Made by a program: the position numbers and the translations under genes. The notes below the pieces were generated by a model, which saw only the letters and a program-made list of their open reading frames with translations, was not told the origin of the DNA and did no database searches. A stretch of 64,000 nucleotides of DNA from an uncultured Pirellulales bacterium (lineage in GTDB: Bacteria > Planctomycetota > Phycisphaerae > Sedimentisphaerales > Anaerobacaceae): contig CAZDTD010000001.1 in NCBI GenBank assembly GCA_964507995.1, positions 1,348-65,347 of the forward strand, written 5' to 3'. How positions within the stretch are numbered: position 1 is the first letter of the stretch; every line of letters begins with the position of its first letter. Shown piece by piece: positions 9,404 through 25,727 of the stretch.

Positions 9404-11257
9404 TCATTCCAGAACGGAATGGGGCAGCCACACGGACGTGAGAGGAGGTGGATAACGGCATGCCAGGATCTTCTCCAGTCGGTCGAGGTCGATCCCGATC
9501 CGCTGGCAGACTTGCTGGAATCTGCCGCTGCCGCGCCTCTGGGACAGCAGTGCCCAAAGCAGGTGATGTTCCTCGACAGACGCCGCGCCGGCCATCGACG
9601 CAATCTGCCGGGCGCTCTGCTGGCAATCGCTGTACCCTTGTGTAACGGACGGCTTGCCGGAGAAAGACCTGGCTTGGACCATGCCGGCGATTCTGTCACG
9701 AAGATCATCCCGACTCCAGCCCGCCTGCTCGAACGACCAGGACAAGACCTCTCCCCCGGCGACAATGCAGCCATAGAAGAGGAACAGGGTCTCAATCAGT
9801 TCGCATCTCTTGTTCCTGGCTAGTTGCTCCGCGGCCAGAAAGGCCTGTTTGACCACGGGCGTCAACGGACTACTCATGGGTGTGATCGGACCGTACGGGG
9901 GACGCGCCGCGCCGACATCGATCGCACAGACTTGCGGCTCGCCCAGCAACTGCGCCTCAGCGGACCACATCGCCTGGGCGAAACTGAGTCGGGTTTGGCG
10001 CTGCCCCGGTCCCTCGACGAAAGCGGTGCATTCGACGAGAAGGAGGCTGCCTGTCTGTATCTGACGGCGTAGAAACTCCCGATCGCGGATCACCATGCGA
10101 CCTGTGGGCAGAGCTCCTGTCCAACAGCCTGCGAACGCGTGGCGAGGAGATTCATCCACCCCGCCGGTCAAGACGATCAGCGGCAACAAGCCGGCGTTTT
10201 CGAGACAACCGGCCATGAGCAGAGCCAGGTCGACGCAGGTCGCCTCGCCCTCTGGCTTGACGGCGGCCATCGACAGGATGCGGTGTACAGGCTTGATGTT
10301 CTGGAAGATCTGTTTGCCTTCGGGGGGACACCAGCGCAGCGCGCAATCGTCCTTCAGGTACTCGTAGATCGCGCGAAAAGCCAGTTCGGTCGCATCCTTG
10401 CCTCCGGAACGAACCAGGGCCTTCAACGAGGGGAAGCTGGTTTGCGCCCCGATGCGTTCGTGTGCCCTGCGTGCAATGTCCTCGACGGTCGCGTGGTCGG
10501 GCGACACGAATGCGGCCAGCGTCTTGAGGGCGGAATCTTCATACGACCAGGACCAGCCCGGAAGGATAGCGATCTCCCGCGAGACACTCACGCTTGGCTT
10601 CTCATGGACCCGAATGCTCAGTTCCCCACGACCGGGCGAGGAGCAGGCCTCCAGTCGATCTGCGTCCAGACGCATCCAGACGGTCCTCAGCAACACAGTC
10701 GCTCTCGCATCCATCTCGGGAACGTCAAGGAGGACCGGGTCGCCGTAAGCCTTGATGAGTAACTCCAGTCGCCAGGAGGGGGACCGCCGTGCCGTGAGAT
10801 TGTATGCCCGCAGAGGACCAACGACAGGCAGGCCGCAGTGATAGGCAGCATAGTTGATGGCCTTCGCATGCGGCCCGGAAACGAGAACGCCATCCGACTG
10901 GATCAGCAGCCAAGTCTTTGGCACAATCGTCCAGATGGTGTCGCCCGACTGGACAGGGGTGCCTGGCACAAACTCCCTGGGGCTTCCTTTCTGGATGAGC
11001 CCGCCAGCGAGGTGGGTGCCGTGTTTGCTCGACAGATCTTCGATGTGCCACGTTCCGTTCGCCCGCCAGAGACGGCAGTGCCGACGACTGACCCGCAGAT
11101 CGGGATTGAGGTCAAGAGCCGGCGCCTGGCTCGGGTCCTCCACGTCGCAACGGCCTACGACGATCTCGTCGTCAGGGAGTGTGCAGACATGGCCCTCCCG
11201 CCCATGGGGACTGGCCAGGATGATGCCCTGAGTTCCACTGTTGTCTCTGTTGCGCAT
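9404..11257 (-). CDS. FHA domain / transglutaminase-like (putative Cys-His fold) / double Clp_N-repeat fusion protein
   Basis: - FHA: 'VVGRCDV...RVSRRHCRLWRANGTWHIEDLSSKHGTHLAG'.
- Transglutaminase-like: 'GEATCVDLALLMAGCLENAGLLPLIV' (Cys block), 'RHAFAGCW' (His block), 'LLLVECTAF'.
- Clp_N-like repeats at the C-terminus: 'VKQAFLAAEQLARNKRCELIETLFLFYG' and 'ARQIASMAGAASVEEHHLLWALLSQ'.
- ATG preceded by AGGTG. Confidence 0.8.
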   Translation of the reverse strand: MRNRDNSGTQGIILASPHGREGHVCTLPDDEIVVGRCDVEDPSQAPALDLNPDLRVSRRHCRLWRANGTWHIEDLSSKHGTHLAGGLIQKGSPREFVPGTPVQSGDTIWTIVPKTWLLIQSDGVLVSGPHAKAINYAAYHCGLPVVGPLRAYNLTARRSPSWRLELLIKAYGDPVLLDVPEMDARATVLLRTVWMRLDADRLEACSSPGRGELSIRVHEKPSVSVSREIAILPGWSWSYEDSALKTLAAFVSPDHATVEDIARRAHERIGAQTSFPSLKALVRSGGKDATELAFRAIYEYLKDDCALRWCPPEGKQIFQNIKPVHRILSMAAVKPEGEATCVDLALLMAGCLENAGLLPLIVLTGGVDESPRHAFAGCWTGALPTGRMVIRDREFLRRQIQTGSLLLVECTAFVEGPGQRQTRLSFAQAMWSAEAQLLGEPQVCAIDVGAARPPYGPITPMSSPLTPVVKQAFLAAEQLARNKRCELIETLFLFYGCIVAGGEVLSWSFEQAGWSRDDLRDRIAGMVQARSFSGKPSVTQGYSDCQQSARQIASMAGAASVEEHHLLWALLSQRRGSGRFQQVCQRIGIDLDRLEKILACRYPPPLTSVWLPHSVLE

Positions 11258-11314
11258 AGCGATTGCACCTGCGCGCCGAAGCCGTTGTCGTCGGCGACCG
11301 GTTCCAGCAACGCG

Positions 11315-13711
11315 TCAAAACGTTCCACCTCGGTAGCACAGAAAGGCCAGCTTGTCATCCTGGATCGTCACTTCAATAGCAGGCCAGGTAGCCGCAGTGG
11401 ACGAGAGCATCAGGTTCAGGAGCGGAACCTCGATCAATCGTTCCACCGTTCGATAGACTTCCCGCGCGCCGTACTCCTCACTGTATGCCTGACTGGCGAC
11501 GACGTCCGCCACCGATCCCGTGAAGTGGACGGGTTTGTGATACTTGTTCGCGGACATCTGTGAGATTTCATCGAGCCTTCGTCTCAGGATTGTCCGGACG
11601 TCGCGCAAATCGAGGGGACGGAAGGCAATCTGCTCGTCGATACGGTTGAGGAACTCCTTGCGAAACCGTTTCTCCACTGCATCGAACACCAGGCGTCTGG
11701 ACTCCGGAGTGTCTTTATGGCAAAAGCCGAAGTCCCGATCCGCAGGAAGGTTGGAGGTCATAATGAAGATAGCGTGCCGTGCATCCGCTAGGCACCCCTT
11801 GGCGTCTGTGAGCCGGCCTTCGTCAAAGACCTGGAGGAACACGTCCATGATGCGAGGATGCGCCTTCTCGACCTCGTCCAACAGCACGACCGAATAGGGT
11901 CTGCTGCGCAGCCGTCCCGTGAGCTGCCCCTCCGCTTCATGGCCAATATACCCAGGCGGAGACCCGACCAGGCGGGCCACGCTGTGTTCCTCCATGTACT
12001 CCGACATGTCGAGTCGAATCATATCCTGCTCGGACCCAAACAGGAAGGTGGCCAGCAAACGAGCCAACTCGGTCTTGCCCACGCCGGTAGGCCCGAGAAA
12101 CAGGAAGACACCCAGCGGACCTCGCCTTTCATTGAACCCGGTCTGTGCCAGCAACAGACGTTGACAGACACGATCGATGGCGCTGTCCTGTCCGATGATT
12201 CGGCTCTTGAGGAACTGGGCCATTTCCAGGAATCGGGAACGGCTCATCCCCTGCGTGTGTCGGAGCAGTACCTCAGCAGGGACCCCGAGCTTCTCGGCCA
12301 GCACCTGCGCGATGGACTCCACGGTGACTTCTCCCACCGGCGGCCCCAGTTCGGCGAGCACCGGTTCCTCATGGGAATCGTCGGGATTCCAGCGAACACT
12401 GAGGGTCGGAATCTGCATCTGCGCCCCGGCAGCGTCGAGTAGATCGATGGCCTTGTCGGGCAAGCGGTGATCGCAGTCGAATCGCACAGACAGATCGACC
12501 GCGGCCTCCAGGACAGCGTCGCTGAACGTGACTCCGTGGTGCTCCTGGAGCATGTCGCGCAGGCCGTGGAGGATCGCCAGCGTCTCATCGCGGCTGGGCT
12601 CCGTCACCAGAACCTTGGCGAACCGTCGCTCCAGAGCGGAATCTGCTTCTATATGCCGTCGGTACTCGTGGGTGGTCGTGGCACCGATGCACCGCACATC
12701 GCCGCGCGCCAGCGCGGGCTTGAGAATATTCGCAGCGTCCAGGCCTCCTTCTGCGTTGCCGGCGCCCACCACGGTGTGCAACTCGTCGAGGAACAACAGC
12801 ACCTCCGGGTGTGCACGGCACTCATCGAGCAGGCCGCAGAGTCGCTGTTCGAAGTCGCCTCGGTACTTGGCTCCGGCTACCAGGGAGCCCATGTTCAGCG
12901 CAACGATGCGCTTGCCGCCCAACACCTCCGGATTCTTGCCCTGCACGGCCCGCAGCGCCAGCGCTTCGACGATGGCGGTCTTGCCCACCCCTGCCTCTCC
13001 CACGAGCACCGGGTTGTTCTTCGACTGCCGAGCCAGGGTGCGCAACACCTGAAGAATCTCGTTCCGCCGGCCGATGACCGGCCTGAGGCGCCCTGCCTGC
13101 GCTTGGGCGGTCAAATCGATCCCAAGAGCGTCCAGGAACGGGGTCTGCGACTTGGTTTTGGCTTGGTCGGCTGCAGCGGCGTTGCGATCGTGCTGGCGCG
13201 ATCTTCGACTCTCCAGATACTCCCTGGTCATGCGAGCCAGCGTAGGGAGATCCACTCTCCTTTCCGCCAGGAGCTGGCACCCAATCGAGTCCTCCTCCTG
13301 AAGAATCGCCAGGAACAGATGGCCGCAGTGGAGCTCGTTTGCTCCCATCTGTGCCGCGATGGCCTCCATCCGACTGAAGAGCTGGCGCGATCGTGGGGAA
13401 CGATGGATATCGTCCCCTTCTCGGTGTTCGTAGGTGCCCAGCCCCAGGCGGTCGCGCAGGTCCCGGCGGAAGCGGTCCGGATCGAGGTGAACGGCTTCGA
13501 GAATGTCCGGAACGAGCGATAGCTCGGACCGCACGTCGGCCGGGTCGGTCCCCTGCAGGGTCATGTTCTTGGCCAATCCGGCCAGCGAGACCTGCTTCAG
13601 TTTCGTCAGCGCCGCGAGAAAATGCTCCGGCTCCACCTTCTCTCTCTTCGCGTAGGGAGCTTCCAAGCAAGCCAATTGCCAGGTGAGGTTGAGGGCCAGC
13701 GATAACTGCAC
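11315..13711 (-). CDS. ClpA-like Hsp100 double-AAA+ unfoldase without a ClpB M-domain
   Basis: - Clp_N at the N-terminus.
- D1 Walker A 'GEAGVGKTAIVEAL', Walker B 'LLFLDELH'.
- D2 Walker A 'GPTGVGKTELARLL', Walker B 'VVLLDEVEKAH'.
- Only ~25 aa lie where ClpB has its coiled coil.
- 'DFGFCHKD' sits where, as I recall, E. coli ClpA has its 'SIGLIHQD' ClpP-docking loop.
- GTG start preceded by AAGGAG. Confidence 0.92.
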   Translation of the reverse strand: MQLSLALNLTWQLACLEAPYAKREKVEPEHFLAALTKLKQVSLAGLAKNMTLQGTDPADVRSELSLVPDILEAVHLDPDRFRRDLRDRLGLGTYEHREGDDIHRSPRSRQLFSRMEAIAAQMGANELHCGHLFLAILQEEDSIGCQLLAERRVDLPTLARMTREYLESRRSRQHDRNAAAADQAKTKSQTPFLDALGIDLTAQAQAGRLRPVIGRRNEILQVLRTLARQSKNNPVLVGEAGVGKTAIVEALALRAVQGKNPEVLGGKRIVALNMGSLVAGAKYRGDFEQRLCGLLDECRAHPEVLLFLDELHTVVGAGNAEGGLDAANILKPALARGDVRCIGATTTHEYRRHIEADSALERRFAKVLVTEPSRDETLAILHGLRDMLQEHHGVTFSDAVLEAAVDLSVRFDCDHRLPDKAIDLLDAAGAQMQIPTLSVRWNPDDSHEEPVLAELGPPVGEVTVESIAQVLAEKLGVPAEVLLRHTQGMSRSRFLEMAQFLKSRIIGQDSAIDRVCQRLLLAQTGFNERRGPLGVFLFLGPTGVGKTELARLLATFLFGSEQDMIRLDMSEYMEEHSVARLVGSPPGYIGHEAEGQLTGRLRSRPYSVVLLDEVEKAHPRIMDVFLQVFDEGRLTDAKGCLADARHAIFIMTSNLPADRDFGFCHKDTPESRRLVFDAVEKRFRKEFLNRIDEQIAFRPLDLRDVRTILRRRLDEISQMSANKYHKPVHFTGSVADVVASQAYSEEYGAREVYRTVERLIEVPLLNLMLSSTAATWPAIEVTIQDDKLAFLCYRGGTF

Positions 13712-13811
13712 CGCGATTTCTCCTTGTCAAGGCGCCGCTGCGGGACGAGAGGCACGAGGATTGTCGCGGAGTCTGCCATCGGGCTCCAGGCACCAGCTCC
13801 GCGTGCATCGG

Positions 13812-14618
13812 TCAGCCATGCCGATGAATCGGTCCAAGCCGCAACGCATAAAGCCCCGCCGGGACGTCCTGAAACTCAGCCACTACGTATTCGTCTTCCC
13901 CCACAGACTCGAACTCCGCCGCCAGAACCTTCCCGTCGGGACGGTGTGGCAGCAACAAAGCCAGCGCCGGCGGCTCCTGTCCCTCTTCGGGCCAAAACTT
14001 GACCCACATCCGACCTCGGCCGTCCACCGCAGTCTGTAGCATTTGACGGCCCCCGTGCCATACATCCGAGCTGGCCGACTGAGGCCGCCGTGCGTCAATT
14101 TCGACCGCGGCCACGAGCTCAGCGACCGCTTCAGCATCACGGTCTTCTGATAAGAACAGGCTGCTCTTCTCCAGATGCTCCTGCAACGCTTTCTGCTCCT
14201 CCGGCGTACCCACGCCGACATAGGCGGGATGAAGCTTGAACTGCCAATCGGCAGGCAGAACCCCGTGCGCGAGGGACGCAACGTCGTGACTTTGATCGAT
14301 CAGCACTTTGAGACTGACCTCGATTTCCTCCTGCAACGCTTGTAGCCACTGGCCAACCCTGGCTGCGAGAGAGGGTTTTGCCTCGGCCACCTCGTGCAGA
14401 CTCCTGACCAATTGCGACTGCCGGCATAGGCGTCCGTGTTCTGCCGCAGTCCAGGAGTTCCACACCGTGGTGAAACCCTTTCGCAGATAGCGCAGCGCCT
14501 GGACGCGCTGCGCGCACGCGGGACAATCCGCCAGATGCAGGTCGGTCGTCAGTTGCTCCTGATCGGAGACGCGGTCAGCAACGTATCGCAGCAATATGCT
14601 TTCGTCAGGGTGTTGCAT
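13812..14618 (-). CDS. Putative anti-sigma factor (zf-HC2), soluble, with no TM segment seen
   Basis: 'LHLADCPACAQ' matches the Hx3Cx2C anti-sigma zinc motif. It lies immediately downstream of the sigma-like gene. I prefer the ATG at 14618 ('MQHPDESILLRYV', preceded by GGGGAA), because the longer ORF to 14759 would overlap the sigma gene by 110 nt. Confidence 0.7.
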   Translation of the reverse strand: MQHPDESILLRYVADRVSDQEQLTTDLHLADCPACAQRVQALRYLRKGFTTVWNSWTAAEHGRLCRQSQLVRSLHEVAEAKPSLAARVGQWLQALQEEIEVSLKVLIDQSHDVASLAHGVLPADWQFKLHPAYVGVGTPEEQKALQEHLEKSSLFLSEDRDAEAVAELVAAVEIDARRPQSASSDVWHGGRQMLQTAVDGRGRMWVKFWPEEGQEPPALALLLPHRPDGKVLAAEFESVGEDEYVVAEFQDVPAGLYALRLGPIHRHG

Positions 14619-14649
14619 AACTTGTTTCCCCAGCAGCGACCAAGACCGG

Positions 14650-15717
14650 TCACCGAACACCGCAGGCAACGGATTGCTTCTTGCGATCCGCGCACGGCGA
14701 CACAGAATGCAGCTTGCATCGACCGCAGGTTCGCGCATCGATGGGCCAGCCGCCGCCATCGTGAGTCAGCGATCCCATGGCTTCGTCCATTTCACCTTCA
14801 TTCATATTGACATCGACAGGAAGGCCCAGGACATGGCGGACCTTCTGTTCCACCCGCACGCACCAATAGCTGATCGGATGCGTTGACTTCCCCTGGTTCT
14901 CCGCTTGCTTCTTGGGGTAGTAATCCCGAAGACACGTAGAGTCTGTGGTATTGTCTTTCAGGTCAAACATCTGATCCGGCAGAGGGCGAATGAGAACGCC
15001 GACGGTGAGCGCGAGTCGGATTCGGGCTGGCTCCATGTGTCGACGGAGATCCTCGGTCTCAGAGAGCCGAGCCAGGCCCGATATGGCCCCGTAACGGGTC
15101 CAGCATTCCTCAATCAGGACGCCCAGCCGCTCGGCGCCATATTGTTTGTCGACACGTTGGGGAGATCCTTCCGCCCCCCGCGTGCTTTCTCCTCCGTGGA
15201 CCAACTTGGCTAATGTGAACGCGATCTGTTCATGGGGATACCCTCCACACTGCCAGAACAGCCGGAACAGCTCGCTGAAAGCGGCTGCTCGCAGGCGGAT
15301 ATCGTCTCCAGACAATGGTTCGGCTTCGGATACCACCTCCACGTCGGAGTCGCCTTCCTCGCCCTCGAGCACTCCGAAGGTCGGGTGTAATCTGCCCTGC
15401 CTTCCCCACCAATCCTTGACCTTGTACTGCGCGACGAAGTTGAGCATCCATGTGTAGAAAGTGCCTTTCTTCGGGTCGTATCCACCCGCTTCGCGAGGTT
15501 TCAGAATGGCCTGCCAGACCCCCAACCACACCTCCTGGGCAACGTCATCGCAGTCGGGTCCTCTTCTGATGCCACAACCTCGCAGGTACCCCTGGAGGCT
15601 CGTCTGGTAGCGTTCGCGGAGCTGGGGAAAAGCATCTGGATCGCCTCGGCGGACCGCTTCTACAAGCTCATGATCGCTAATTCCATCCACGGGAATCCTC
15701 GCTCTATCGATGTTCAT
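14650..15717 (-). CDS. Sigma-70 family (ECF-like) sigma factor with a long atypical Cys-rich C-terminal region
   Basis: The region-2-like block is 'DCDDVAQEVWLGVWQAI...FYTWMLNFVAQYKVKDWW'. A canonical region 4 is not obvious. The C-terminus carries 'CGRCKLHSVSPCADRKKQSVAC'. 355 aa is long for an ECF sigma. Confidence 0.6.
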   Translation of the reverse strand: MNIDRARIPVDGISDHELVEAVRRGDPDAFPQLRERYQTSLQGYLRGCGIRRGPDCDDVAQEVWLGVWQAILKPREAGGYDPKKGTFYTWMLNFVAQYKVKDWWGRQGRLHPTFGVLEGEEGDSDVEVVSEAEPLSGDDIRLRAAAFSELFRLFWQCGGYPHEQIAFTLAKLVHGGESTRGAEGSPQRVDKQYGAERLGVLIEECWTRYGAISGLARLSETEDLRRHMEPARIRLALTVGVLIRPLPDQMFDLKDNTTDSTCLRDYYPKKQAENQGKSTHPISYWCVRVEQKVRHVLGLPVDVNMNEGEMDEAMGSLTHDGGGWPIDARTCGRCKLHSVSPCADRKKQSVACGVR

Positions 15718-16177: not shown

Positions 16178-17209
16178 ATGAGAACGAAAATCGCAGTATT
16201 CGAGGCCGTCGTACTCGGTTTGTTTGCCTCGACTGTCTTGGCCGGGGAGCAAGAACCGATCGATTTGCGTCTGAAATGGCAGCCCGGCCAGACCCTGCGG
16301 TACAAGCTGGACCTCGATGCCAGCACGTACATCGAGGGGCAGAGCATGCGAATGGCTTTGCAGACCCAGGTGGATGTGCGTGTCGTGGCAACCGCCAAGG
16401 CTTCGGACGCCAAGGCCTGGAAGGACCGCAACGATCCGGATGGCAACGATCTGAGCAAGGCGATCTCCTCGGGCGAAGAGGTCATGACGCTGGAACTGAC
16501 CCAGCAGCCGGTCGTAACCACGATCTCCATGCAAGGGCAGCGGCTCGTCATGACGGTGAGCGGGGATGATGTGACCGCATCCATAAATGGCAAGACGCTG
16601 GGCTGGAGCGAATTGGCTCAGCTCCGTAACGACGTTGCCCCGCTGCAGAAGGCTCTCAAGGCGCCGGTGCAACTGACGATGACCAGAACCGGCAAAGTCG
16701 TGCGGGTCTCCGGGCTCGAGGGACTCGACCCTGAGACGAAGAAGCAGCTGGCGATGAGTTACTTCGACTCGTTTCAGCTTCCGGAGACTCCCATGAAGGT
16801 CGGCGAGCAGTTCCTCAACACACGACAGCTCGATTCGCTGCTGCCGACTCAGCCGAACGCGTCTTCCGCTTCCACGCCCGGCACGTTGGATATCGTCAGC
16901 ACGCTGAAGGTGGTGACCAAGGACGCGCAGGGCCGCCGTGTTGCGGAAATCCACACGCCGCTGAAGCACCGGTTCGAGCGCGTGCCTCTCGACGAGGATG
17001 GGACGATGGGATCGATGGAGCTTGACGTGACGTCCACGACCTCGTTCGAGGTGGATCGAGGCACCATCACGGCGGAAAACACCCGAGGCACCGTCGTCAT
17101 GCATCCGGACCGACGCGCCGGTTTGCCCGACTCGCTCAAGACGAACATCGGCGCGTCCTTCGTGCTCGTGGAAATGACGGAGTCTCGGGAAGTGGCCCGC
17201 GGAATGTAG
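16178..17209 (+). CDS. Secreted protein of unknown function (signal peptide, beta-rich)
   Basis: The N-terminus 'MRTKIAVFEAVVLGLFASTVLAGE' looks like a signal peptide. RBS 'GAAAGG'. No recognisable catalytic motif. Confidence 0.8.
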   Translation: MRTKIAVFEAVVLGLFASTVLAGEQEPIDLRLKWQPGQTLRYKLDLDASTYIEGQSMRMALQTQVDVRVVATAKASDAKAWKDRNDPDGNDLSKAISSGEEVMTLELTQQPVVTTISMQGQRLVMTVSGDDVTASINGKTLGWSELAQLRNDVAPLQKALKAPVQLTMTRTGKVVRVSGLEGLDPETKKQLAMSYFDSFQLPETPMKVGEQFLNTRQLDSLLPTQPNASSASTPGTLDIVSTLKVVTKDAQGRRVAEIHTPLKHRFERVPLDEDGTMGSMELDVTSTTSFEVDRGTITAENTRGTVVMHPDRRAGLPDSLKTNIGASFVLVEMTESREVARGM

Positions 17210-17220
17210 GAGAGACGTCA

Positions 17221-18318
17221 ATGTATCAACATAGAAGAGTTATTGTGATTGGAATTGCGATCCTCCTTTTTGCGATGCTCTGCGCCGCCATTCGTCTGAC
17301 GACGGCGCCGGGAAGCCAGGTCTATGAGATGGTGTTCCATCGCAGTTTCGTGCAGTACCTGTCGCTTTTCACGTTCGTGCTGATTCTCACGCTGCTGGGT
17401 GATCGCGCACGAACCCGCTGGCTGGCAGCCAGACGCCTGCGTCAGATCGCGCGAGCCGAGCAACCGTGGGCGAGTGACCTTGCATTCGGCGAGGATGCCG
17501 ATGCGTTCGGCCAGGAACTCGCCAGAAACGGTCGCAGCGGCGTGCCCGACACCGTCCAGTATCTGGCGGATCTCTGGCGCAACCGAATGCGAGGTGCCTA
17601 CGAGTTCGTCGGATCCCTGGTCTGCCTGCTGCCGGCATTGGGTCTGTTCGGGACCATGCTGGGAATCCACGATGCGCTGTTCGCCTCGTTCGGCCAGGGC
17701 AGCCACGGACCGGAGGCCGTGAACAAGTTCATCGGCTCGTTGGCGGTTGCCCTGGACACCACGGTTCTGGCGCTCGGAGCGGCTCTCATCGCGGGAGCAA
17801 TGTCCTGGATCATGCAGCGGCTGGAAAAGACGCAGATCGAGGAGCGGTCACAATTCGTGCGCCAGGCGTTGGCCGAGCGATTCGCGCTTTCCCTCGTGGA
17901 AGGCGATGCAGGCGCCGCGGACGACAACACGCGTGCGATCCGACCTGCGACGGTTCTGCAATCCGAACTGCGTGTTCTCCTGACTGCTGTATTCGAACAG
18001 GCACTGTCCCGGTTCGACCAGCGGCTGCGCGAGGTGATCGCCTCGAATCGCACGGAACTGGCAACCGTCGTCGCCGACGTCTTCGAACGACAGCATGGAC
18101 ACGAGCAGGCGGTTGTCCAGCGTCTTGCCGACGAGATCCGCAAATCGATGAGTGACATCGAATCGGTCCTGAAGCAGCACAATACCCTTGCGATGAAGCG
18201 ATTCGCGTCCAGCCTCGGGCGTCTGTCCCAGACGATCAGTCGACGTATTCCCGGCGAGCTGGTCATTCGCTACGATGGCAATGGTCATCATGAAGCGGAG
18301 AATGACGATGACATCTAA
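17221..18318 (+). CDS. MotA/TolQ/ExbB-family proton-channel-like protein with ~165-aa helical C-terminal tail (stator A-subunit-like, copy 1)
   Basis: Four hydrophobic helices. 'LPALGLFGTMLGI' and 'LAVALDTTVLALGAALIAG' match the two conserved MotA/ExbB blocks. RBS AGGAG. Confidence 0.8.
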   Translation: MYQHRRVIVIGIAILLFAMLCAAIRLTTAPGSQVYEMVFHRSFVQYLSLFTFVLILTLLGDRARTRWLAARRLRQIARAEQPWASDLAFGEDADAFGQELARNGRSGVPDTVQYLADLWRNRMRGAYEFVGSLVCLLPALGLFGTMLGIHDALFASFGQGSHGPEAVNKFIGSLAVALDTTVLALGAALIAGAMSWIMQRLEKTQIEERSQFVRQALAERFALSLVEGDAGAADDNTRAIRPATVLQSELRVLLTAVFEQALSRFDQRLREVIASNRTELATVVADVFERQHGHEQAVVQRLADEIRKSMSDIESVLKQHNTLAMKRFASSLGRLSQTISRRIPGELVIRYDGNGHHEAENDDDI

Positions 18319-19075
18319 GCAGTCTGTGGTGATCGCCATCGGTTTCATTGTCCCGCCGCTGTTGTGCCTGATTGCGATTGCGGCGTTGGCGAATCTCGCT
18401 CGCGCAGATGAGTTGGAGGAAAAGAGGATGGGAGGCAACCCTGCGGCGGCTCCGGCAGTATCCCCGCCGGGCGAAAGCCGCCGCAGGGCCCAGGATGCTC
18501 TGGACGCCTCCATCGAGGAGGCGCGAGCACGCGAGGCTGCCCTCGATCAAAGCATTCGCGAGAAGAACTCCTCCGTGGCCCGACTGAAGGACGACCTGAC
18601 CGTGCAGTCCGAAACTGCGACGTCGCTGGAGGAGCTTCGAGCACGAGTAGCCGCCGCGGAGAAGCAGCGCACCGAGTCGAGCACACAACTCGACGCGCTG
18701 AAGCAATCGCAGGCACAACAGGAGAAGATCCTGTCGGTGATGGCCTTGAGCGGCAAGCACAAGACAAACACGAGACCCGCGACATTTGTCGAATGCGTGG
18801 CCGACGGTGTGCTCCTGCAACCTCGGCAGGAGAGATTCTCGATTCGGCCCGCCGCGGCCGAACGCGGGGCCTTCACCACCTCCATCAAAGAGACGGACTA
18901 TGTCGTATTTCTGATCCGGCCGGACGGCTTTGAGAGCTTCTGGCAGTATTACCGCTTGGCACGATCGGCAAACGTCGGTGCGGAAACCTCCATCGACGTG
19001 GGCTATGAACCGGTGAATGCCGACTGGCATCTGCTCTATCTGCAGCAGAAAGGACAAGCACATGCAAGGTCTTGA
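18302..19075 (+). CDS. Membrane-anchored coiled-coil protein with ExbD/TolR-like(?) C-terminal domain
   Basis: The ATG at 18302 overlaps the upstream stop (18316-18318). It has a single TM helix ('VVIAIGFIVPPLLCLIAIAALANLA') and a ~100-aa coiled coil. The C-terminal block 'FVECVADGVLL...DYVVFLIRPDGFESF' is paralogous to the next protein. Confidence 0.75.
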   Translation: MTMTSKQSVVIAIGFIVPPLLCLIAIAALANLARADELEEKRMGGNPAAAPAVSPPGESRRRAQDALDASIEEARAREAALDQSIREKNSSVARLKDDLTVQSETATSLEELRARVAAAEKQRTESSTQLDALKQSQAQQEKILSVMALSGKHKTNTRPATFVECVADGVLLQPRQERFSIRPAAAERGAFTTSIKETDYVVFLIRPDGFESFWQYYRLARSANVGAETSIDVGYEPVNADWHLLYLQQKGQAHARS

Positions 19076-19910
19076 GTTTGACGGAGTCTTCCAGAAAATC
19101 ACGCCGGTACTCGACTTCGGCACATTGCTCGTCATGATCCTGCTGACCGTCACCCAATTCAGCGACCAAGCCCCAGGCAACGCGCAGAGGCCCGCCGTGC
19201 CGCAACACAGTGGGGGTCCGTGTGCGCCAGCAGCAACCCGCCCTTTGGAGGGACAGGAGACTCTCGATGCACTGCAACTTGCTGTCCAACACAAGCAAGC
19301 GCTGTTCCAGGAGCTTGTGAACCGAGAAACGCAGTTGGAGCAGACGCTGGCGCCCCTGGCCAAAGCACAGGGAGAACAGGCGGAGTTGAAGGAACGACTG
19401 GCACGTGCGCTCGCAGAGAATGCCAGGCTGCAGGACGAGATAGCTGGGACGACAAGAAAACCACGGGAGATGGGCACGGTCACCGTCGAGAACACCTCCC
19501 TGGTGGATCACGATACGCAACGGAAACCTCTGTACGTAGCGTTGATCCGGGCGAGCGTTGTGCCTGTGGCCGAACCCTACTATCGATTCACACCTCATGT
19601 CGAGGAAAACGAGCAAGGCGTCTTTGAGATGGTGACGGATGTGTGCAGAGACAACCGGCAGGCCGGCGAGTCCGCTGAACAAGCGGTGGCGAAAGGATCG
19701 CAACTGGACCGTTTCCTGCGGGAGATCGACGTGCAGAGGACGTTTGTCGCACTGCTGGTGGATGCTTCTTCTTTCGAGACCTTTCGGACCGTCAGGCAAA
19801 TGCTGCAGGAACGCAGCATCCCGTTCGGATGGCTGCCGTGTTCATCGCCGTCGAAGTTCGTGCTCCGCAGGGGCCAGGGCACAACGATCGGCGAAGAGGT
19901 CGCAAGGTAA
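19062..19910 (+). CDS. ExbD/TolR/MotB-like B-subunit candidate with coiled-coil spacer
   Basis: The ATG at 19062 overlaps the upstream stop (19073-19075). 'ITPVLDFGTLLVMILLTV' resembles the ExbD/TolR TM helix, including the conserved Asp. A coiled coil follows, then the C-terminal block 'LYVALIRASVV...TFVALLVDASSFETF'. Confidence 0.7.
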   Translation: MQGLEFDGVFQKITPVLDFGTLLVMILLTVTQFSDQAPGNAQRPAVPQHSGGPCAPAATRPLEGQETLDALQLAVQHKQALFQELVNRETQLEQTLAPLAKAQGEQAELKERLARALAENARLQDEIAGTTRKPREMGTVTVENTSLVDHDTQRKPLYVALIRASVVPVAEPYYRFTPHVEENEQGVFEMVTDVCRDNRQAGESAEQAVAKGSQLDRFLREIDVQRTFVALLVDASSFETFRTVRQMLQERSIPFGWLPCSSPSKFVLRRGQGTTIGEEVAR

Positions 19911-19947
19911 ACAACAGACTCGAGTTTGGGTAGGAAGGGATACAACG

Positions 19948-21489
19948 ATGATCACAATGAACAGCCGAGACAACGAGAGTAGAGAAGATCGGAGATATGG
20001 TCCAGTCGTCGCCGTCCTGGTGCTGCTTGCGATCGGCGCGCGCGCTATGTCCAAGGACTGTCCGCCGCCGTCGCAGGTGACTCCGGCGGCCGAACGTGCG
20101 ATTCTGTCGGGAGACTGGGAGCAAGTGCTGAAGACATTGGGGCCTGTGGATGGACCGAACCTCCCGCCGGTGATCCGTATGATTGCGGGACACGCCTACC
20201 TGGCGACCAACCGCAACAACGATGCTCTCAGGCTCTTCGCTTCCGCTTTGAACGATGCCGACCGCCAGGCATGGAATGAATGGACCGCGTCTTTTGTGGC
20301 CGGACACGGTCGGTCGGCAGTTGCGCAATATCTTCGAGGTGACGCGCTGGCCCGACAACAAGATTGGCAGGCGGCCAGCGCATGTTTTGATGAGGCCCTT
20401 CGGCTCGACCCGCAGTGCTATCTGGCGGCCAACGCCCGCGGCGTGGTCGCTCACGCGGTCGGAAACACCATCGAGGCTCGCATGTACTTCCTCAAGACCG
20501 CCAGGATCAAGAAGGACTTCGCTGACGCTTACGCCAGTCGCGGGACCTTGAACGTGTATTTGCATTCCGTCGCGCGGGACAGACGCGGCGGGCAAGAACA
20601 GCCGTTTGAAACCGCTCAACACTACTCGCGCGATGAGAACGCCGTTGTGGCCCTCATCGGACGTGGGTGCGTACTGTATGGCCAACAAAACTACGAAGGG
20701 GCTCTGGCTTGTTTCCAAGCTGTGCCCGATGCCTCCGACTTGGCGCCGCTGGCGCGCCGCAATGGGATGGGCGCCGCGACTGCCAGGTTGGAGCGCAGTC
20801 TCAAAGAGGCCCAGAGACTGGGCACCTTTGTGCAGACCATGGAATTGGACCTGGCGGACAACCAGAAGGTCACGGTTCAGACAGAGCCGTCGTCCCCCGG
20901 CGTGGTCTTCTCCGCCAGTTGGGGCGTTACAGAAATTGAGATCAACCTCGGAATCATCAATATCCATGTGGGACCGAAGCCCGGCTCAGACACCGGGAAT
21001 GGAGGCAAGGGTGGTGATAACGGTGGTGATAACGGTGGCGACAAAGGCGGTGACAAGGGTGGCAACGAAGGGGGTGACAAAGACGCGGGCAAAGACAGCA
21101 ACCCGAGCGTCGCTCCGAATGTGGCCATGCTCCCTCTGGAGATTCTGCCCAGGAACCCTTACGTCATAGACCTGCCGGACCTGACAGGGGGACTGACAGA
21201 CGGGAGGATCGAGACGCCCCAGTTGCCTGGACGAACTGGCGACTTGTACTCCAACCTGGCTACTGCACTGACGGAACTGACCTCGACGGTCGACCGGCAG
21301 ACCGCAAGCGTAGCTTCCGGACCGAGTATCTCCCCATCAAACACCATGTCGCAGACGCCCACTGCACAACAAGGTCCTCTCGGCGGCGTCAACGGCAACG
21401 TCGCGGGAATCACCTCCAATCGCGGCGACTGGAGCGTATGCAGCGTCTATGGTCTGCTCTACCGCATCCCGACCGAGGGCGACAAGTAG
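19948..21489 (+). CDS. TPR-repeat protein with signal-anchor and Gly/Asp-rich low-complexity linker
   Basis: ATG at 19948 preceded by GGAAGGGA. N-terminal hydrophobic segment 'VVAVLVLLAIGARA'. TPR-like helices ('AVAQYLRGDALARQQDWQAASACFDEALRLDPQ'). Linker 'GNGGKGGDNGGDNGGDKGGDKGGNEGGDKDAGKD'. Confidence 0.8.
   Translation: MITMNSRDNESREDRRYGPVVAVLVLLAIGARAMSKDCPPPSQVTPAAERAILSGDWEQVLKTLGPVDGPNLPPVIRMIAGHAYLATNRNNDALRLFASALNDADRQAWNEWTASFVAGHGRSAVAQYLRGDALARQQDWQAASACFDEALRLDPQCYLAANARGVVAHAVGNTIEARMYFLKTARIKKDFADAYASRGTLNVYLHSVARDRRGGQEQPFETAQHYSRDENAVVALIGRGCVLYGQQNYEGALACFQAVPDASDLAPLARRNGMGAATARLERSLKEAQRLGTFVQTMELDLADNQKVTVQTEPSSPGVVFSASWGVTEIEINLGIINIHVGPKPGSDTGNGGKGGDNGGDNGGDKGGDKGGNEGGDKDAGKDSNPSVAPNVAMLPLEILPRNPYVIDLPDLTGGLTDGRIETPQLPGRTGDLYSNLATALTELTSTVDRQTASVASGPSISPSNTMSQTPTAQQGPLGGVNGNVAGITSNRGDWSVCSVYGLLYRIPTEGDK
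20995..21085 (+). repeat. Imperfect 15-nt tandem repeat encoding (GGD[NK])n
   Basis: 'ggtggtgataac ggtggtgataac ggtggcgacaaa ggcggtgacaag ggtggcaacgaa gggggtgacaaa'. Confidence 0.8.
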
Positions 21490-21511
21490 CCGTGGTGGAA
21501 ACACGCCTCGC

Positions 21512-21521
21512 GGGGGGGGGG
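21512..21521. repeat. G10 homopolymer tract fused to the Shine-Dalgarno of the 1246-aa gene
   Basis: 'cGGGGGGGGGGAAGGAGacgaaatcATG'. The tract lies between the TPR gene stop (21489) and the ATG at 21536. Confidence 0.9.
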
Positions 21522-21535
21522 AAGGAGACGAAATC

Positions 21536-24500
21536 ATGAGAGCACAACACACGGCACATCGTGGAGTTCTCCTGGCGATGGGTCTGATCCTGAACGTCTC
21601 GGCAGTCGGCTGGGCCGGCCCGATCCAGGCCTTCTCGCTGCGCGAGGCCATTCGGCGTCTGGAGCAGAACCAAGGCAACACCGTTGAACTGCGATCGCTC
21701 GGTGGAATCACTCGCTTCTGCGGCATGGTGGTGGACCGGGAACACGACGACTTGATCTTGGTCGGACGGGTCCGGCCGGACTTGCCCGAAGCGTCGTTGG
21801 ATGACCTCGTCGTTGCCTTGCGATGCCGACTGTTGGGCGATGGATACCCGAGCGTCAGCATCGACATGGTGAAAGACACTGCAACCACCGGCCTGCAAGA
21901 AGTGCGCTTTGGCGGAGGGATCGAACAGACTGCGTTCGGCAAGTGTTTCCTGGAGAGCGATGTTCTGCTCAAACGATACAGCCTGGATCTCTTGGAGTCC
22001 CACGACGAGATCGATTCGTACCTGAAGCTATATGAGGAGGAGGTCAGGGAGAAACTCCGCACGCGAGGATTCGAGGTGCAGGACGTCCGATGGCTTTCCG
22101 ATGATGAATCGCGCCAGCTCGTAGAAAGCTACAAGGGGCGCACGGCTGCCGCCAGCGAGGTCGTGCAAAGCCGATTCTGGTTTCACGTCAGAGACGAGGA
22201 CTCCTTCGTCGCGGAGCAGGACGACGTGTACATGATCGACGAGCTGCAACTGGGAGTGAAGATGGAGACGGTGTCGCGACGAGAGACCGACGCCAACAGT
22301 CCGCGAAGCTCACCGGTCCCGGATCGCGCGGGAGAGAGGTTCGCGGCTCAGTTCACCGAACGCTATCGAGCCGCGTGCGACGAGCACCCCGGTCTGCGCC
22401 AGCTCAAGACCCTCTTCGACCTCGTCTGTATTGCCGAGGGCATTGCCCATCTCGGCGAGGACCGCCCAAACATCGACTATCTGCTGCACACGTACCGCTT
22501 CCCGACCATCGAGACGCAGGAGCATTATCCACTGATGCAGAGAGTGGGGGAGTTCCAAGGCTCCAACGGTGACAGCGTCCTCCTGCAGCTCAGCGGCGGA
22601 CTCGAGCTGGAGCCGGTGTTGCTGGCGTTGGAAGACGGTGACGTCTCGGTTCTCAAACAGGTGGTTCTCGCCGCTCGACCGAGCCCGAACGCGCTATCCT
22701 GGACCCTGCCGCTCGACGACTGGGCCATGCCCAACGATGATTCGCGAGGGAGAAGTCCGAGCCAAGAGGTGTCGGCGCCCGGCCGCGAGCCCGACGAGCT
22801 TGGGTGTTCACTGGATATCCAGGCCTTCACCTTCAGTCACACGCAGTCCGGGACCGCGGGTCCGTTCTTTAGAGGCTTCTCGTCCCCGCGGGAGTTGGAG
22901 CCCCTTCGCACGCCCAAGGCAGCTCCGAACGTAGGGCCCCGTCTTCGTAAGAGGGCGCACGGCTTGTCCGACGTGGCGGGAGTCCTCCTCGATGGTAGCG
23001 CCGGAGTCGTAGGGGACACGGATGTGCCAGTGAGTCTGCTTGCAGGGGATTTCTCGCTGATTCTCGATGGGCCGAACGACAAGGTCGATCCCGACGTGTA
23101 CCGCAAGTTCGTCACAGCTCTATGGGCCGTCTACTACAGCGATGCGAACGTCGGCATCTCCATCGATCCGGTCATCGACCCCAACGGTCGCTGGCTCGAC
23201 CGGCACATGGTCCGCTACATCGGCCATGTCGTCAACACGGACCTCAGTCGCGTTATGCGCGAGGCAGACTACCTCATGAAGCAGTGGTCCGTCGGGACCA
23301 CCAGACCCGCGATTGAAGGGTTCCACAATCCCGACGACATTTCCGCCAAGCGCGGCTACACATACCTCACCGCAGATCGCTTCTGGTTCGTCCCCGACAA
23401 TCTGGTGTTCCGAAAATCCGGGAACATGCTGCTCTTCGACCAGGGACGCATGACGCTGAGAACAGAGAGTCTCCGTGCAGGTCCGCGTCAGGCGGGAACC
23501 CACGAGGCCCAAGAGTGGTTCGCGCAGTTCTTCACGGAGCACTACGACCAGATCGCTCGCAGATACCCGGTCTACCAGGAGTTGTTTGAGTACGCCAAGC
23601 TGGTGGGTCTGGCCAAATACCTGAAGGAGAGCGGCGTGCCACTCGGGGGATTCCTGATGACCCATCAAGATCTTGTCCTGACGGAGGGCTCTCCGGGAAC
23701 GGTTCTCGGGTTAACCAAACCGTCGGAGCACTTCCAGGGCGTGACCATCCAGGGTGGCGTGGATCTCGGGGCCGATGCGAGATACGTCTATGATGCTCAG
23801 GCGGTGGAAGCAATCAACAAGATCCACACCGGATTGCCTGAGACCCCGACGAAGCAAGGGACACCAGGCCGCCAAGACCGTCGTCTGCCGCCCGAGCGGT
23901 CTGCGTCCTTTGACATCAACGGGCGGACCTTCACGCTCTTGCCCCACAGGAGTGTGACGTCGCATGAAAATCGCGGTCACGCCTGTTACGAGACAGACTT
24001 GGCCATTCGCGCGCAGGGCCTGCAGTTGACAGAGGATGCATGGCAGGCAGTGCGGGATGACTTGTTGTGCCAAGTCTTCGCTGAGCAGTGGAATCGGCTG
24101 ATGGAGACGGAGAGCGGGCCGCGGGACGACTCCGAAATGGACGTCCTCTACCAGCGTGCGTCTGCAGGCGCCCAGAGAGCGACGGATCCGATCGCCCGCG
24201 ACCTGCGCACGCTGGTTGGCCAACGGTATCCCAGCCGGGAAGCATTTCTCAAAGCAGTCGATGACGCTGTGGGCGAGCGACGAGCCGCTACGCTGGAGTC
24301 GATCGTGCTGCGTCATGGGCAGTATCGGTGCAATCTGGAACTCGTGAGAGTCTGCGACGCGAGCTGGCCGGCACATGGACAGTTCGGCCAGGGTAATGCG
24401 TTGCTGATTCCCTATCGGATCCAACCTGCCGGCACGGCCAAGACCGAGTTCCTCAATGCGGTCATCCCGCAGCAGATGATTCTGGAGAACCTGATCAGCG

Positions 24501-25276
24501 GACGTGACGAGACTCTGACGTTCAGCGCCGACAAGTACGAAGCAGCTACGTATCTTCCACCCGAACCGCAGTCCAGCCGGACGGTTGCGATCTTGCTTCT
24601 GTCCGATGCATCGTATCTCATGATCGACAAGCTGGGCAACCAATTCACGTTTGACCCGGCCGGTCGTCTGACGGACATGTGCTTCGCGCCTGCCCATCGC
24701 AGTCACATCGAGTACCTGGATGAAGCCACCTCAGCCTTCGAGACACCACCGTATCACGTCGAGCCTGTCGGAAGCGAACAGACGAGGTTCGCTCAGTGGG
24801 CACTGCCCAAGACCATGCAGGTGCAGGACCTCGTCCACAACAGCAGCGAGATTCTGACGTTCGACCCCAACTGCGTAGTCGCGGGTTACGTGCCGAACGA
24901 AGGACAACCCAGCAGGTTCAGAATCCTCGCGCCGATGTCAGACGCATCATTCCGGTTGCTGGACAAGCACGATAATGAGATCGTGTTCAGCCCGGCCGGT
25001 GATTTTACAACGTGGATCAACGCCTTTGAATACCCGATGGCGGCCTCGCTATCGGCTGGGCCATACAGGATCGACTTCTCTTACAGCATCGATGGAGAAG
25101 GAAAGCTCGTGACTGCTGCCGCTCGCCTCTCGCAACAGGGCAATGCCCGGCCTCTCTGCAGCGTGTACTACACCTATGATGATGCCGGCAGGCTCCGCAC
25201 CGTCACTCGTCGGGAACAGGACAACGACAAGCTCCTGCGGGCACAAGCGACAGATGACCCATTGCCTGCCTTTTGA
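21536..25276 (+). CDS. Large secreted protein (1246 aa), unknown function, internal duplications, YD-like motifs at the C-terminus
   Basis: - ATG at 21536 with RBS GAAGGAG.
- Signal peptide 'GVLLAMGLILNVSAVGWAG'.
- Duplicated block 'VSIDMVKD...VRFGGG...FLESDVLLKRYSL' / 'ISIDPVID...VRYIGH...MREADYLMKQWSV'.
- C-terminal ~113-aa duplication ('ETLTFSADKY...SDASYLMIDKLGNQFTFDPAGRLT' / 'EILTFDPNCV...SDASFRLLDKHDNEIVFSPAGDFT').
- One canonical YD motif, 'YYTYDDAGRLRTV'. Confidence 0.85.
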   Translation: MRAQHTAHRGVLLAMGLILNVSAVGWAGPIQAFSLREAIRRLEQNQGNTVELRSLGGITRFCGMVVDREHDDLILVGRVRPDLPEASLDDLVVALRCRLLGDGYPSVSIDMVKDTATTGLQEVRFGGGIEQTAFGKCFLESDVLLKRYSLDLLESHDEIDSYLKLYEEEVREKLRTRGFEVQDVRWLSDDESRQLVESYKGRTAAASEVVQSRFWFHVRDEDSFVAEQDDVYMIDELQLGVKMETVSRRETDANSPRSSPVPDRAGERFAAQFTERYRAACDEHPGLRQLKTLFDLVCIAEGIAHLGEDRPNIDYLLHTYRFPTIETQEHYPLMQRVGEFQGSNGDSVLLQLSGGLELEPVLLALEDGDVSVLKQVVLAARPSPNALSWTLPLDDWAMPNDDSRGRSPSQEVSAPGREPDELGCSLDIQAFTFSHTQSGTAGPFFRGFSSPRELEPLRTPKAAPNVGPRLRKRAHGLSDVAGVLLDGSAGVVGDTDVPVSLLAGDFSLILDGPNDKVDPDVYRKFVTALWAVYYSDANVGISIDPVIDPNGRWLDRHMVRYIGHVVNTDLSRVMREADYLMKQWSVGTTRPAIEGFHNPDDISAKRGYTYLTADRFWFVPDNLVFRKSGNMLLFDQGRMTLRTESLRAGPRQAGTHEAQEWFAQFFTEHYDQIARRYPVYQELFEYAKLVGLAKYLKESGVPLGGFLMTHQDLVLTEGSPGTVLGLTKPSEHFQGVTIQGGVDLGADARYVYDAQAVEAINKIHTGLPETPTKQGTPGRQDRRLPPERSASFDINGRTFTLLPHRSVTSHENRGHACYETDLAIRAQGLQLTEDAWQAVRDDLLCQVFAEQWNRLMETESGPRDDSEMDVLYQRASAGAQRATDPIARDLRTLVGQRYPSREAFLKAVDDAVGERRAATLESIVLRHGQYRCNLELVRVCDASWPAHGQFGQGNALLIPYRIQPAGTAKTEFLNAVIPQQMILENLISGRDETLTFSADKYEAATYLPPEPQSSRTVAILLLSDASYLMIDKLGNQFTFDPAGRLTDMCFAPAHRSHIEYLDEATSAFETPPYHVEPVGSEQTRFAQWALPKTMQVQDLVHNSSEILTFDPNCVVAGYVPNEGQPSRFRILAPMSDASFRLLDKHDNEIVFSPAGDFTTWINAFEYPMAASLSAGPYRIDFSYSIDGEGKLVTAAARLSQQGNARPLCSVYYTYDDAGRLRTVTRREQDNDKLLRAQATDDPLPAF

Positions 25277-25590: not shown

Positions 25591-25727
25591 CCTGGAACGG
25601 AACGTGTCGGTGGCACACAACTCGAGCAAATCGGTGGGTGACGCGCAAGGATTTGTACGTTTCGTCGGTCCTCACGGAGTCGGCGCTTCGCGGTTCTTGG
25701 CCGAACCACCTAAAGGTGGAGACTCGG

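Follow-up and report, generated by a model that had tools for sequence, protein, structure and literature searches.

A conserved gene row encoding a tailed MotA/ExbB-family protein and two stalked membrane anchors, a candidate non-canonical stator, in an uncultured Pirellulales bacterium

A gene row around a MotA/ExbB-type protein

We analyzed a stretch of 64,000 nucleotides (nt) of contig CAZDTD010000001.1 from an uncultured Pirellulales bacterium (assembly GCA_964507995.1, positions 1,348 to 65,347). The whole of this stretch, which derives from a bioreactor metagenome, is referred to here as the window, and all coordinates are those of the window. A tight row of seven genes on one strand, g1 to g7, spans positions 16178 to 28259 (+), and three of them, g2, g3 and g4, encode a MotA/ExbB/TolQ-type protein with a C-terminal extension and two membrane anchors with long helical stalks (Table 1). 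A sequence-only reading of positions 16178 to 19910 had proposed that this trio is a non-canonical motor driven by the proton motive force (PMF), a proposal that is partly supported by the results given below. The coordinates of that reading also hold g1 (16178-17209), which it did not mention.

The genes of the trio are coupled. As had been noticed, g3 and g4 each start inside the preceding stop region: candidate ATG starts of g3 lie at 18302 and 18308 (the gene caller chose 18308, which gives the 255-amino-acid [aa] protein P0019) and the g2 stop codon at 18316-18318, an overlap of 11 to 17 nt, while g4 starts at ATG 19062 and the g3 stop codon occupies 19073-19075, an overlap of 14 nt. The overlap of a MotA-type gene with an anchor gene recurs in four other loci, L001, L005, L015 and L017. 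Across the six loci used for comparison (L001, L003, L005, L007, L008 and L009), g2, g3, g4, g6 and a Ser/Thr kinase gene were present in every case and the gene for the tetratricopeptide repeat (TPR) protein g5 in five of the six; a kinase with FGE-sulfatase (FGS) domains adjoins the operon in every locus. The trio, at which the module had been taken to end, stands as a conserved set, but the functional unit extends to 25276, the end of g6, and probably to the kinase gene g7. A scan of the operon for promoters and terminators gave no informative signal, and none of the transcriptome sequencing runs searched for the locus contains it.

Table 1. Genes of the row and features recognized within them (TM, transmembrane; AF2, AlphaFold2 model)
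Feature	Positions	Strand	Description
g1	16178-17209	+	343 aa, exported; N-terminal signal-like helix, residues 5-23 (hydropathy); stops 11 nt 5' of g2
g2	17221-18318	+	365 aa, MotA/ExbB/TolQ-family A subunit
MotA_ExbB Pfam match in g2	17569-17847	+	Residues 117-209; includes 'PALGLFGT' and 'ALDTT' blocks
C-terminal extension of g2	17818-18315	+	Residues ~200-365; predicted to be cytoplasmic; 'RIPGELVIRYDxNGH' motif and acidic tip at end
g3, anchor 1 (T1)	18302 or 18308 to 19075	+	257 or 255 aa; Asp-less TM helix, Pro-rich linker, long helix, domain A
TM helix of g3, VVIAIGFIVPPLLCLIAIAAL	18326-18394	+	No Asp; conserved P-x-L-x-C-L-I
Predicted long helix of g3	18467-18724	+	Residues 54-139 of P0019 (255-aa g3); AF2
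Domain A of g3	18782-19036	+	Residues 159-243 of P0019; motifs FVEC, YVVFLIRPDGF, GYEPVNADW
g4, anchor 2 (T2)	19062-19910	+	282 aa, B-like; Asp helix, disordered Pro-rich linker, long helix, domain B
Trans-pore-type helix of g4, ITPVLDFGTLLVMILLTVT	19098-19154	+	Asp18 codon GAC at 19113-19115
Predicted long helix of g4	19254-19457	+	Residues 65-132; AF2
Domain B of g4	19524-19868	+	Residues 155-269; motifs YVALI, PYY, FVALLVDxSSFETFR, PFGWLP
g5	19948-21489	+	513 aa, exported or anchored TPR protein
g6	~21533-25276	+	~1,250 aa, exported; open reading frame opens at 21449
g7	25458-28259	+	<=933 aa, cytoplasmic Ser/Thr kinase with two FGS domains

Profile and alignment evidence identifies g2 as a true member of the MotA/ExbB/TolQ family, as the sequence-only reading had claimed from two signature blocks. 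The protein matched PF01618 (MotA_ExbB) with 36.5 bits and E 4.7e-9 over residues 117-209, against a Pfam cut-off of 22.9 bits, and PF01618 is present in 11 of 11 homologues. In an alignment of these homologues the blocks 'LLPALGLFGT' and 'SLAxALDTT' are invariant, as are T145 and T180/T181. When a profile of the g2 family was compared with proteins of solved structure, the closest were ExbB (6ye4, E 0.003) and TolQ (E 0.05), and no MotA, PomA, ZorA or GldL appeared at E<=1. The two blocks align with 'PFVGLFGT' and 'ALLAT' of ExbB, that is, with the two pore-lining helices of ExbB, so that T145 and T180/T181 would fall where the partner Asp is contacted in solved 5:2 motors. In ZorA, the corresponding contact with ZorB Asp26 is made by Thr147 and Ser184 (PMC11946911), and a "ring of threonines" has been described in 5:2 motors (PMC12204202).

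Four hydrophobic segments were found in g2 by hydropathy (residues 6-24, 42-60, 125-147 and 174-198), which argues for a MotA-like topology rather than the three-helix topology of ExbB and TolQ. The loop between the first and second segments is short and strongly conserved ('EMxFHRSFVQY'). Beyond the domain there is, as had been noted, a C-terminal extension, of ~166 aa in g2 and ~165 to 270 aa among homologues; it closes with the motif listed in Table 1, which is conserved in the family, and gave only weak, coiled-coil-type profile matches, including matches to ZorA-tail and LeoBC profiles.

This protein is rare. A word-indexed search of 5.8 billion proteins returned 11 clusters of g2 homologues only. 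Three of 185,579 species genomes encode the A subunit (one Syntrophobacteraceae metagenome-assembled genome [MAG] and two Pirellulales MAGs), as do four JGI metagenome loci, one of them new, and no homologues were found on viral contigs.

Two different anchors and their C-terminal domains

Hydropathy gave one N-terminal hydrophobic helix apiece in g3 and g4, in agreement with the sequence-only reading. That reading took both proteins for ExbD-like B subunits, and this holds for the helix of g4 but not for g3. The g4 helix (residues 14-28, TPVLDFGTLLVMILL; also written as ITPVLDFGTLLVMILL) bears Asp18, which is kept in 15 of 15 relatives, namely 7 of 7 database homologues and the equivalent helix in eight loci (L001, L003, L005, L007, L008, L009, L015 and L017). 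A profile of 17 T2 N-termini, compared as T-P-x-x-D-type helices with the N-termini of Escherichia coli ExbD and TolR, aligned Asp on Asp with an hhalign E of 2.1e-6 and a probability of 89%; the E. coli reference sequences agreed with the PDB chains (TolR identical, ExbD 140/141). The g3 helix, with 'VPPLLCLI' in place of an Asp-bearing segment, is distinct in kind from that of g4. Helices of the g3 type showed no similarity by hhalign to those of ExbD/TolR (E 0.22) or to those of the g4 type (E 0.05, one column). As judged from these helix comparisons, the trio consists of one B-type subunit, g4, and one different anchor, g3. ExbD-like character could not be recovered by profile search, as PF02472 (ExbD) matched neither g3 nor g4 at E<=1.

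In AF2 models, both proteins continue from the membrane helix into a Pro-rich, low-confidence linker, then a long helix, and then a compact alpha/beta domain, with the long helices and compact domains modeled at predicted local distance difference test (pLDDT) values of 80 to 95. A coiled coil of ~100 aa had been proposed for each. A long helix is indeed predicted in each, but it is shorter: 86 residues in g3 (54-139, mostly at pLDDT >90, ~13 nm if straight) and 68 in g4 (65-132, ~10 nm if straight). The modeled layout of g3 is thus a TM helix, a periplasm-spanning region and, at the C terminus, a domain of globular shape.

The C-terminal block that g3 and g4 had been said to share is real but remote. 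Pairwise BLASTP of the two proteins was nonsignificant (E 0.25), whereas hhalign of the family alignments gave E 1.9e-7 over the full length and, with the coiled coils removed, E 3.9e-6 across an alpha-beta-alpha-beta core in which YVVFLIRPDGFESF aligned with FVALLVDASSFETF. These alignments indicate that the two C-terminal domains, here called A (g3) and B (g4), are paralogous. In the AF2 model domain A has the element order beta-beta-beta-alpha-beta-alpha-beta-beta, and domain B is a paralogue of it with an extra inserted beta-hairpin.

Neither domain is demonstrably ExbD-like. Compared with the periplasmic domains of ExbD and TolR, they gave hhalign E values of 0.03 and 0.099 with probabilities of <2%, in the expected register, values that were nonsignificant with alignments of 12 to 18 sequences and of 148 sequences alike. 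Foldseek searches of the PDB with both full-length AF2 models returned nothing at E<=0.001, and neither ExbD nor TolR was among the top 50. The succession of strands and helices, beta-beta-beta-alpha-beta-alpha-beta, recalls that of ExbD, a resemblance only. Searched against PDB sequences, the g3 and g4 family profiles produced coiled-coil noise only and the domain-A profile nothing. The C-terminal domain of g3 had no match of the TonB_C or TolA_C type in Pfam, PDB sequence or Foldseek searches. Weak RNase H/integrase-like Foldseek matches of g4 were dropped as unsupported, and so was the source name "RuvC/YqgF nuclease" carried by homologues.

These results bear on the possibility that the genes belong to an ordinary, divergent Tol-Pal or ExbBD-TonB system of Planctomycetota. 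Such a system would fit the finding that ExbB and TolQ are the nearest solved relatives of g2, the TolA-like three-part layout of g3 (TM helix, long helix, small globular domain) and the presence of a TPR protein with a faint match of the YbgF/CpoB type (E 0.004, far below threshold). Against it, no ExbD, TonB_C, TolA, TolB or Pal/OmpA profile matched and the g3 helix contains no His and no SHLS (Ser-His-Leu-Ser) pattern; in many g3 orthologues a His lies just past the opposite end of the helix ('GAFLHL'). Between 9.4 and 33 kb of the window we found no OmpA/peptidoglycan (PG)-binding, TonB_C, TolA, TolB or Pal domain, which bears out the earlier statement that no such partner is recognizable. 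Moreover, with so few A-subunit clusters and species genomes the system appears too rare for housekeeping, and its loci adjoin integrases. We consider this explanation very improbable.

Domain A belongs to a large family. Its profile recovered 755 clusters at E<=1e-3, 136 of them at E<=1e-10, among 1.84 billion representative proteins, and we found no description of this domain family or of the operon in the literature that we searched. Source names of the members were uninformative, and 20 distant domain-A proteins contained no informative Pfam domain. Three types of member were seen: proteins of ~230 to 330 aa with a g3-like build; proteins of 500 to 980 aa in which a coiled coil, domain A and, past a Gly-rich spacer, a further copy of the domain come after an ExbD-like helix with Ala for Asp (VSTFPFLAVLLCAMG); and ExbD-sized proteins of ~150 aa (P0139 and P0152) in which an Asp helix is fused directly to the domain. 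The ExbD-sized members had no PF02472 match at E<=10. In metagenomic operons, 500- to 980-aa anchors with the Ala helix (VSTFPFLAVLLCAMG) were observed at L015 2762-7657 and as P0110, P0123 and P0125, with two to three domain copies and very long Gly-rich spacers.

In L015 and L017, the two other domain-A loci with a readable gene layout, a tailed MotA_ExbB gene overlaps a gene for an Asp-less anchor, which is followed by an Asp-anchor gene with a domain B-like end. A MotA-like core plus a tail also forms the end of the gene that lies, in L014, 5' of an Asp-helix domain-A protein. The window and the six comparison loci each have exactly one anchor without Asp and one with it, and exactly one copy each of domains A and B; it is the fusions that vary. 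T1 bears domain A and T2 domain B in the window and in L001, L007 and L009. In L003, T1 bears A, T2 has a short helix only and a third anchor bears B; in L005 and L008, T1 has the helix only, T2 bears A and a third anchor bears B. From this varied joining of anchors and domains we infer a single stalk built from the helices of these polypeptides, within which it would matter little which chain bears which head domain.

Exported partners, kinase and neighboring genes

Three further proteins of the row, g1, g5 and g6, have signal-like N termini by hydropathy. The best-conserved component is g6, with 35 to 54% identity across ~1,100 to 1,250 aa. It has internal repeats and sub-threshold or borderline matches to DUF1598, DUF6531 and RHS repeats; its orthologues showed weak DUF6531 and RHS_repeat matches and, in L003, one DUF1598 match above threshold. 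The C-terminal third of g6 contains modules of ~150 aa that repeat, with YD-like motifs ('FTFDPAGRL', YYTYDDAGRLRTV). Pfam matches identified g5 as a TPR protein, which also has a Gly/Asp-rich linker, and in L003 and L005 the g5 and g6 genes are translationally coupled (4-nt overlap). In g5 and its orthologues in L001, L003, L005, L008 and L009 the C terminus carries 'GDWxVxxVYGLLY' (given for g5 as 'GDWxVCSVYGLLY') after a low-complexity spacer rich in Gly, Asp and Lys. The only Pfam match of g1, to DUF6263, was sub-threshold. Orthologues of g1 occupy the same position in L001 and L007, a similar 330-aa gene is present in L017, and g1 is absent from L003, L005, L008 and L009. No solved relatives of g6 or g1 were found by sequence.

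The conservation of g6 raises the question of whether the genes encode a surface-movement or secretion motor, comparable to GldLM with SprB or AglRQS with Glt, in which the stalks drive or export g6 as adhesin-like cargo, an explanation that is compatible with the core model set out below. It would make sense of a giant exported protein that is the best-conserved partner and is coupled translationally to the TPR protein, of the YD/RHS-like and DUF6531-like segments of g6, of the two different B-type anchors, which recall AglQ and AglS, and of the long stalks, which recall GldM. The presence 8 kb downstream of another stator-like module, whose partner has Ig repeats, points in the same direction. 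Scans of the window proteins recognized no outer-membrane channel and no type IX secretion system (T9SS), Glt or adhesin-sorting components, however; GldL and GldM are unrelated in sequence; and the rarity of the loci argues against a lineage-wide motility apparatus. Such a role seems to us rather doubtful.

The second module lies at 28320-31702 (+), directly 3' of the kinase gene. It encodes a tailed MotA_ExbB protein of 389 aa (32.8 bits) that is paralogous to g2 (26% identity, E 3e-10). Its partner, of ~730 aa from ~29513, bears the Asp helix TSFLDVLANTIGGLAF and six He_PIG Ig-like repeats; near residue 620 it has a second TM helix.

The kinase g7 has no TM segment by hydropathy, which would place its two FGS domains in the cytoplasm. 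Its true start is probably downstream of 25458, because the L001 orthologue aligns from residue 91. Together with the ~166-aa tail of g2, the FGS-domain kinase suggests regulation or signaling on the cytoplasmic side.

A divergent set of genes occupies 9404-15717 (-) and encodes a protein with FHA and Clp_N domains (617 aa), a ClpA/B-type double AAA+ ATPase (798 aa), a zf-HC2 anti-sigma-like protein and a sigma factor of the extracytoplasmic function (ECF) type. Both L001 (Planctomycetota-like) and L007 (the Syntrophobacteraceae MAG) also have the FHA/Clp_N protein and the ATPase, the sigma factor recurs in L001 only, and the anti-sigma-like protein has just a weak match of its C-terminal part in L007. 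Mobile-element genes at 4275-9175 (-) form the left border of the locus: IS21 IstB and transposase genes at 4275-6568, a tyrosine recombinase gene at 7225-8022 and an rve-type transposase gene at 8108-9175. Integrase genes flank L003 and L005.

Tail, kinase and mobile elements together raise the alternative of a Zorya-like envelope surveillance or conflict system. Here g2 and g4 would sense perturbation (e.g., by phage) through the stalks, g5 and g6, and a signal would pass inward through the g2 tail to the kinase, the FHA protein and the Clp ATPase. An A-subunit tail of varying length (165-270 aa) with weak ZorA and LeoBC profile matches is what such a system would lead one to expect, and so are the rare and patchy distribution of the loci (Planctomycetota and Syntrophobacteraceae, besides the metagenome loci), the mobile-element genes that flank the window locus (4.3-9.2 kb) and the integrases beside L003 and L005. 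The g7 kinase resembles PADLOC defense kinases, and its FGS domains are of a type proposed to be invader-binding modules in conflict systems (PMC7159879). Yet the operon has no conserved effector, whether nuclease, NADase, pore or other, the PADLOC matches reflect generic kinase, AAA and SNF2 similarity, and no ZorB-type PG-binding domain is present. Exported structural proteins are the partners with the highest conservation, and ECF sigma/anti-sigma pairs are found more typically in envelope regulons. The absence of homologues from viral contigs is neutral in this respect. A ZorD-like SNF2 helicase gene with DUF3670 does lie in the window, at 133-2628 (+) (E 2e-123 against PADLOC ZorD models; it also matches DpdE and DrmD), but it is 14 kb from the stator genes, past the IS21, integrase and transposase genes, is absent beside the orthologous loci and is probably unrelated to the motor module. 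Overall, we regard the surveillance explanation as unlikely.

Downstream of the second stator-like module, a set of large genes at 31718-50041 (-) encodes a TPR protein (437 aa), an Hsp70-like ATPase (868 aa), an 891-aa protein and a 3,216-aa open reading frame. Residues ~545-805 of the 891-aa protein weakly match the LeoBC and ZorA3 PADLOC profiles.

A proposed stator and its relation to known motors

The explanation that we favor, with somewhat more confidence than doubt, is that the genes encode a non-canonical Ton/Tol-like ion-driven stator in which a ring of g2 surrounds the Asp helix of g4, g3 provides a second helix or a peripheral anchor, the stalks reach exported partners, and regulation takes place in the cytoplasm. 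According to this model, g1 to g6 would form a conserved operon with g2, g3 and g4 as its inner-membrane core. By homology, g2 is expected to be a pentameric ion-conducting ring, and the Asp18 helix of g4 would sit in its pore as do the helices of ExbD, TolR and MotB. Ion flow through the Thr/Asp site, presumably powered by the PMF, would drive conformational work. For its part, g3 might form a heterodimeric axle with g4 inside the pore or dock outside the ring like TonB or TolA. The flexible Pro-rich linkers of both anchors would lead into helices of 10 to 13 nm, probably joined in a shared coiled-coil stalk, an arrangement that the shuffling of domains among loci would fit. The stalks would hold domains A and B (~90 to 115 residues) deep in the periplasm, where the domains are expected to engage the exported proteins g5, g6 and sometimes g1. 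Ion flow through g2 and g4 could thereby be turned into movement of, or tension on, envelope partners, a Ton/Tol-like logic with different parts, and the tail of g2, together with the kinase, FHA protein, Clp ATPase and sigma factor, may regulate the machine or relay its state.

Several observations weigh against this stator model. The Asp is on one of the two anchors only, and canonical motors use two. A 5:2 (or 5:1:1) assembly and ion flow are predictions from family membership. The C-terminal domains are not detectably related to those of ExbD, TolR, TonB, TolA or OmpA, which makes their targets guesswork, and the SHLS/His motif that g3 lacks is the docking site of TonB and TolA on their motors. 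The tail of g2 suggests an output to the cytoplasm like that of Zorya, and by that analogy the direction of signaling could be reversed. Rare loci flanked by integrases are easier to reconcile with an accessory or conflict system than with envelope maintenance. Finally, the ExbD-sized protein P0139 has no MotA gene nearby.

To our knowledge, the 5:2 motors of the Mot, Exb, Tol, Zor and Gld types are the only route from an inner-membrane ion gradient to mechanical work in the envelope, and each newly recognized set of partners that we know of has led to a new function, be it motility, import, division, secretion or immunity. The trio described here is unusual in three respects: an Asp helix carried on a coiled-coil stalk with an unannotated domain family, an ever-present second anchor without Asp, and a tailed A subunit. 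A heterodimeric axle with a single Asp would also test models of rotation built on two alternating Asp residues. Since this is a large domain family, of hundreds of clusters, whose genes often stand beside tailed MotA/ExbB genes, a whole class of motors may be annotated as hypothetical. A bolder version, which we put forward only tentatively, is that this is a widespread, undescribed Mot/Exb-type class with an obligate heterodimeric axle (Asp helix plus Asp-less helix), a shared coiled-coil stalk, the new domain family (~755 clusters), a tailed ring and exported g6 and TPR proteins coupled to Ser/Thr-kinase signaling. It would then be a new trans-envelope machine, which might serve envelope surveillance or immunity or else the movement of a surface protein.

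Taken together, the comparisons with known motors place the module outside Zorya, Tol-Pal, Ton and the flagellar stators. With the Ton and Tol systems it shares an A subunit in PF01618, a conserved Thr on both pore-lining helices and a single-pass partner whose Asp helix aligns with those of ExbD and TolR. The layout of g3, a TM helix followed by an extended stretch and a small domain at the C terminus, is like that of TolA, and the tol-pal operon likewise contains a TPR gene (CpoB), as g5 is here. It differs from them in that g2 has four hydrophobic segments and a tail, and in that g4, where a short linker would be expected, has a Pro-rich one plus a 68-residue helix and ends in a domain that is not detectably ExbD-like. 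In contrast with TonB and TolA, g3 has neither the SHLS/His motif nor homology to their C-terminal domains, and the operon, rare and island-borne, includes no TolB, Pal or TonB-dependent receptor.

AglRQS combines one A subunit with two different B-type subunits, AglQ and AglS, which are ExbD/TolR-like throughout and both carry the Asp. GldM has long periplasm-spanning stalks, and both AglRQS and GldLM are tied to large exported proteins. The likeness to these systems lies in the two anchors, the long stalks and the large exported protein found here; the differences are that g2, g3 and g4 have no sequence relationship to GldL or GldM and that no Glt or T9SS components accompany them. As for flagellar stators, protein scans found no OmpA match and no flagellar genes in the window.

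The sequence-only reading had likened the tail of g2 to that of ZorA, and this analogy proved weak. The module does share with ZorAB of Zorya (PMC11946911) an A subunit with a C-terminal, probably cytoplasmic extension, a B-type partner with an Asp of the essential type and an accessory, island-type locus. However, the best ZorA model matched g2 with only 16.4 bits (E 8e-4) and over residues 120-200 alone, that is, the channel core, and the tail is ~166 aa long compared to ~500 aa in ZorA. There are two different anchors here and no PG-binding ZorB domain, g3 and g4 having no ZorB or OmpA-type match. No ZorC, ZorD or ZorE is conserved with the operon among the orthologous loci compared, and PADLOC and NCBIfam gave no system-level match.

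A survey of MotAB stators and their nonflagellar relatives has described varied appendages on scaffolds of the Exb/Tol type (PMC12505986). The closest published analogue of the present module is the group of TolQ-like motors whose Asp-helix partners carry vWA domains; these partners occur in heterologous pairs, a TPR gene is linked to them in bacteria of the Planctomycetota-Verrucomicrobiota-Chlamydiota (PVC) group, and their function is unknown (PMC12204202). Common to both are the TolQ-like motor, an Asp-bearing trans-pore helix on a periplasmic domain that is not ExbD, the heterologous pairing of partners and the TPR gene. What sets the present system apart is that domains of ~90 to 115 residues from a new family, carried on long helical stalks, take the place of vWA, that one partner is without Asp, whether by loss or from the outset, and the A subunit is tailed, and that the unit includes an exported protein of ~1,200 aa and an FGS-domain kinase.

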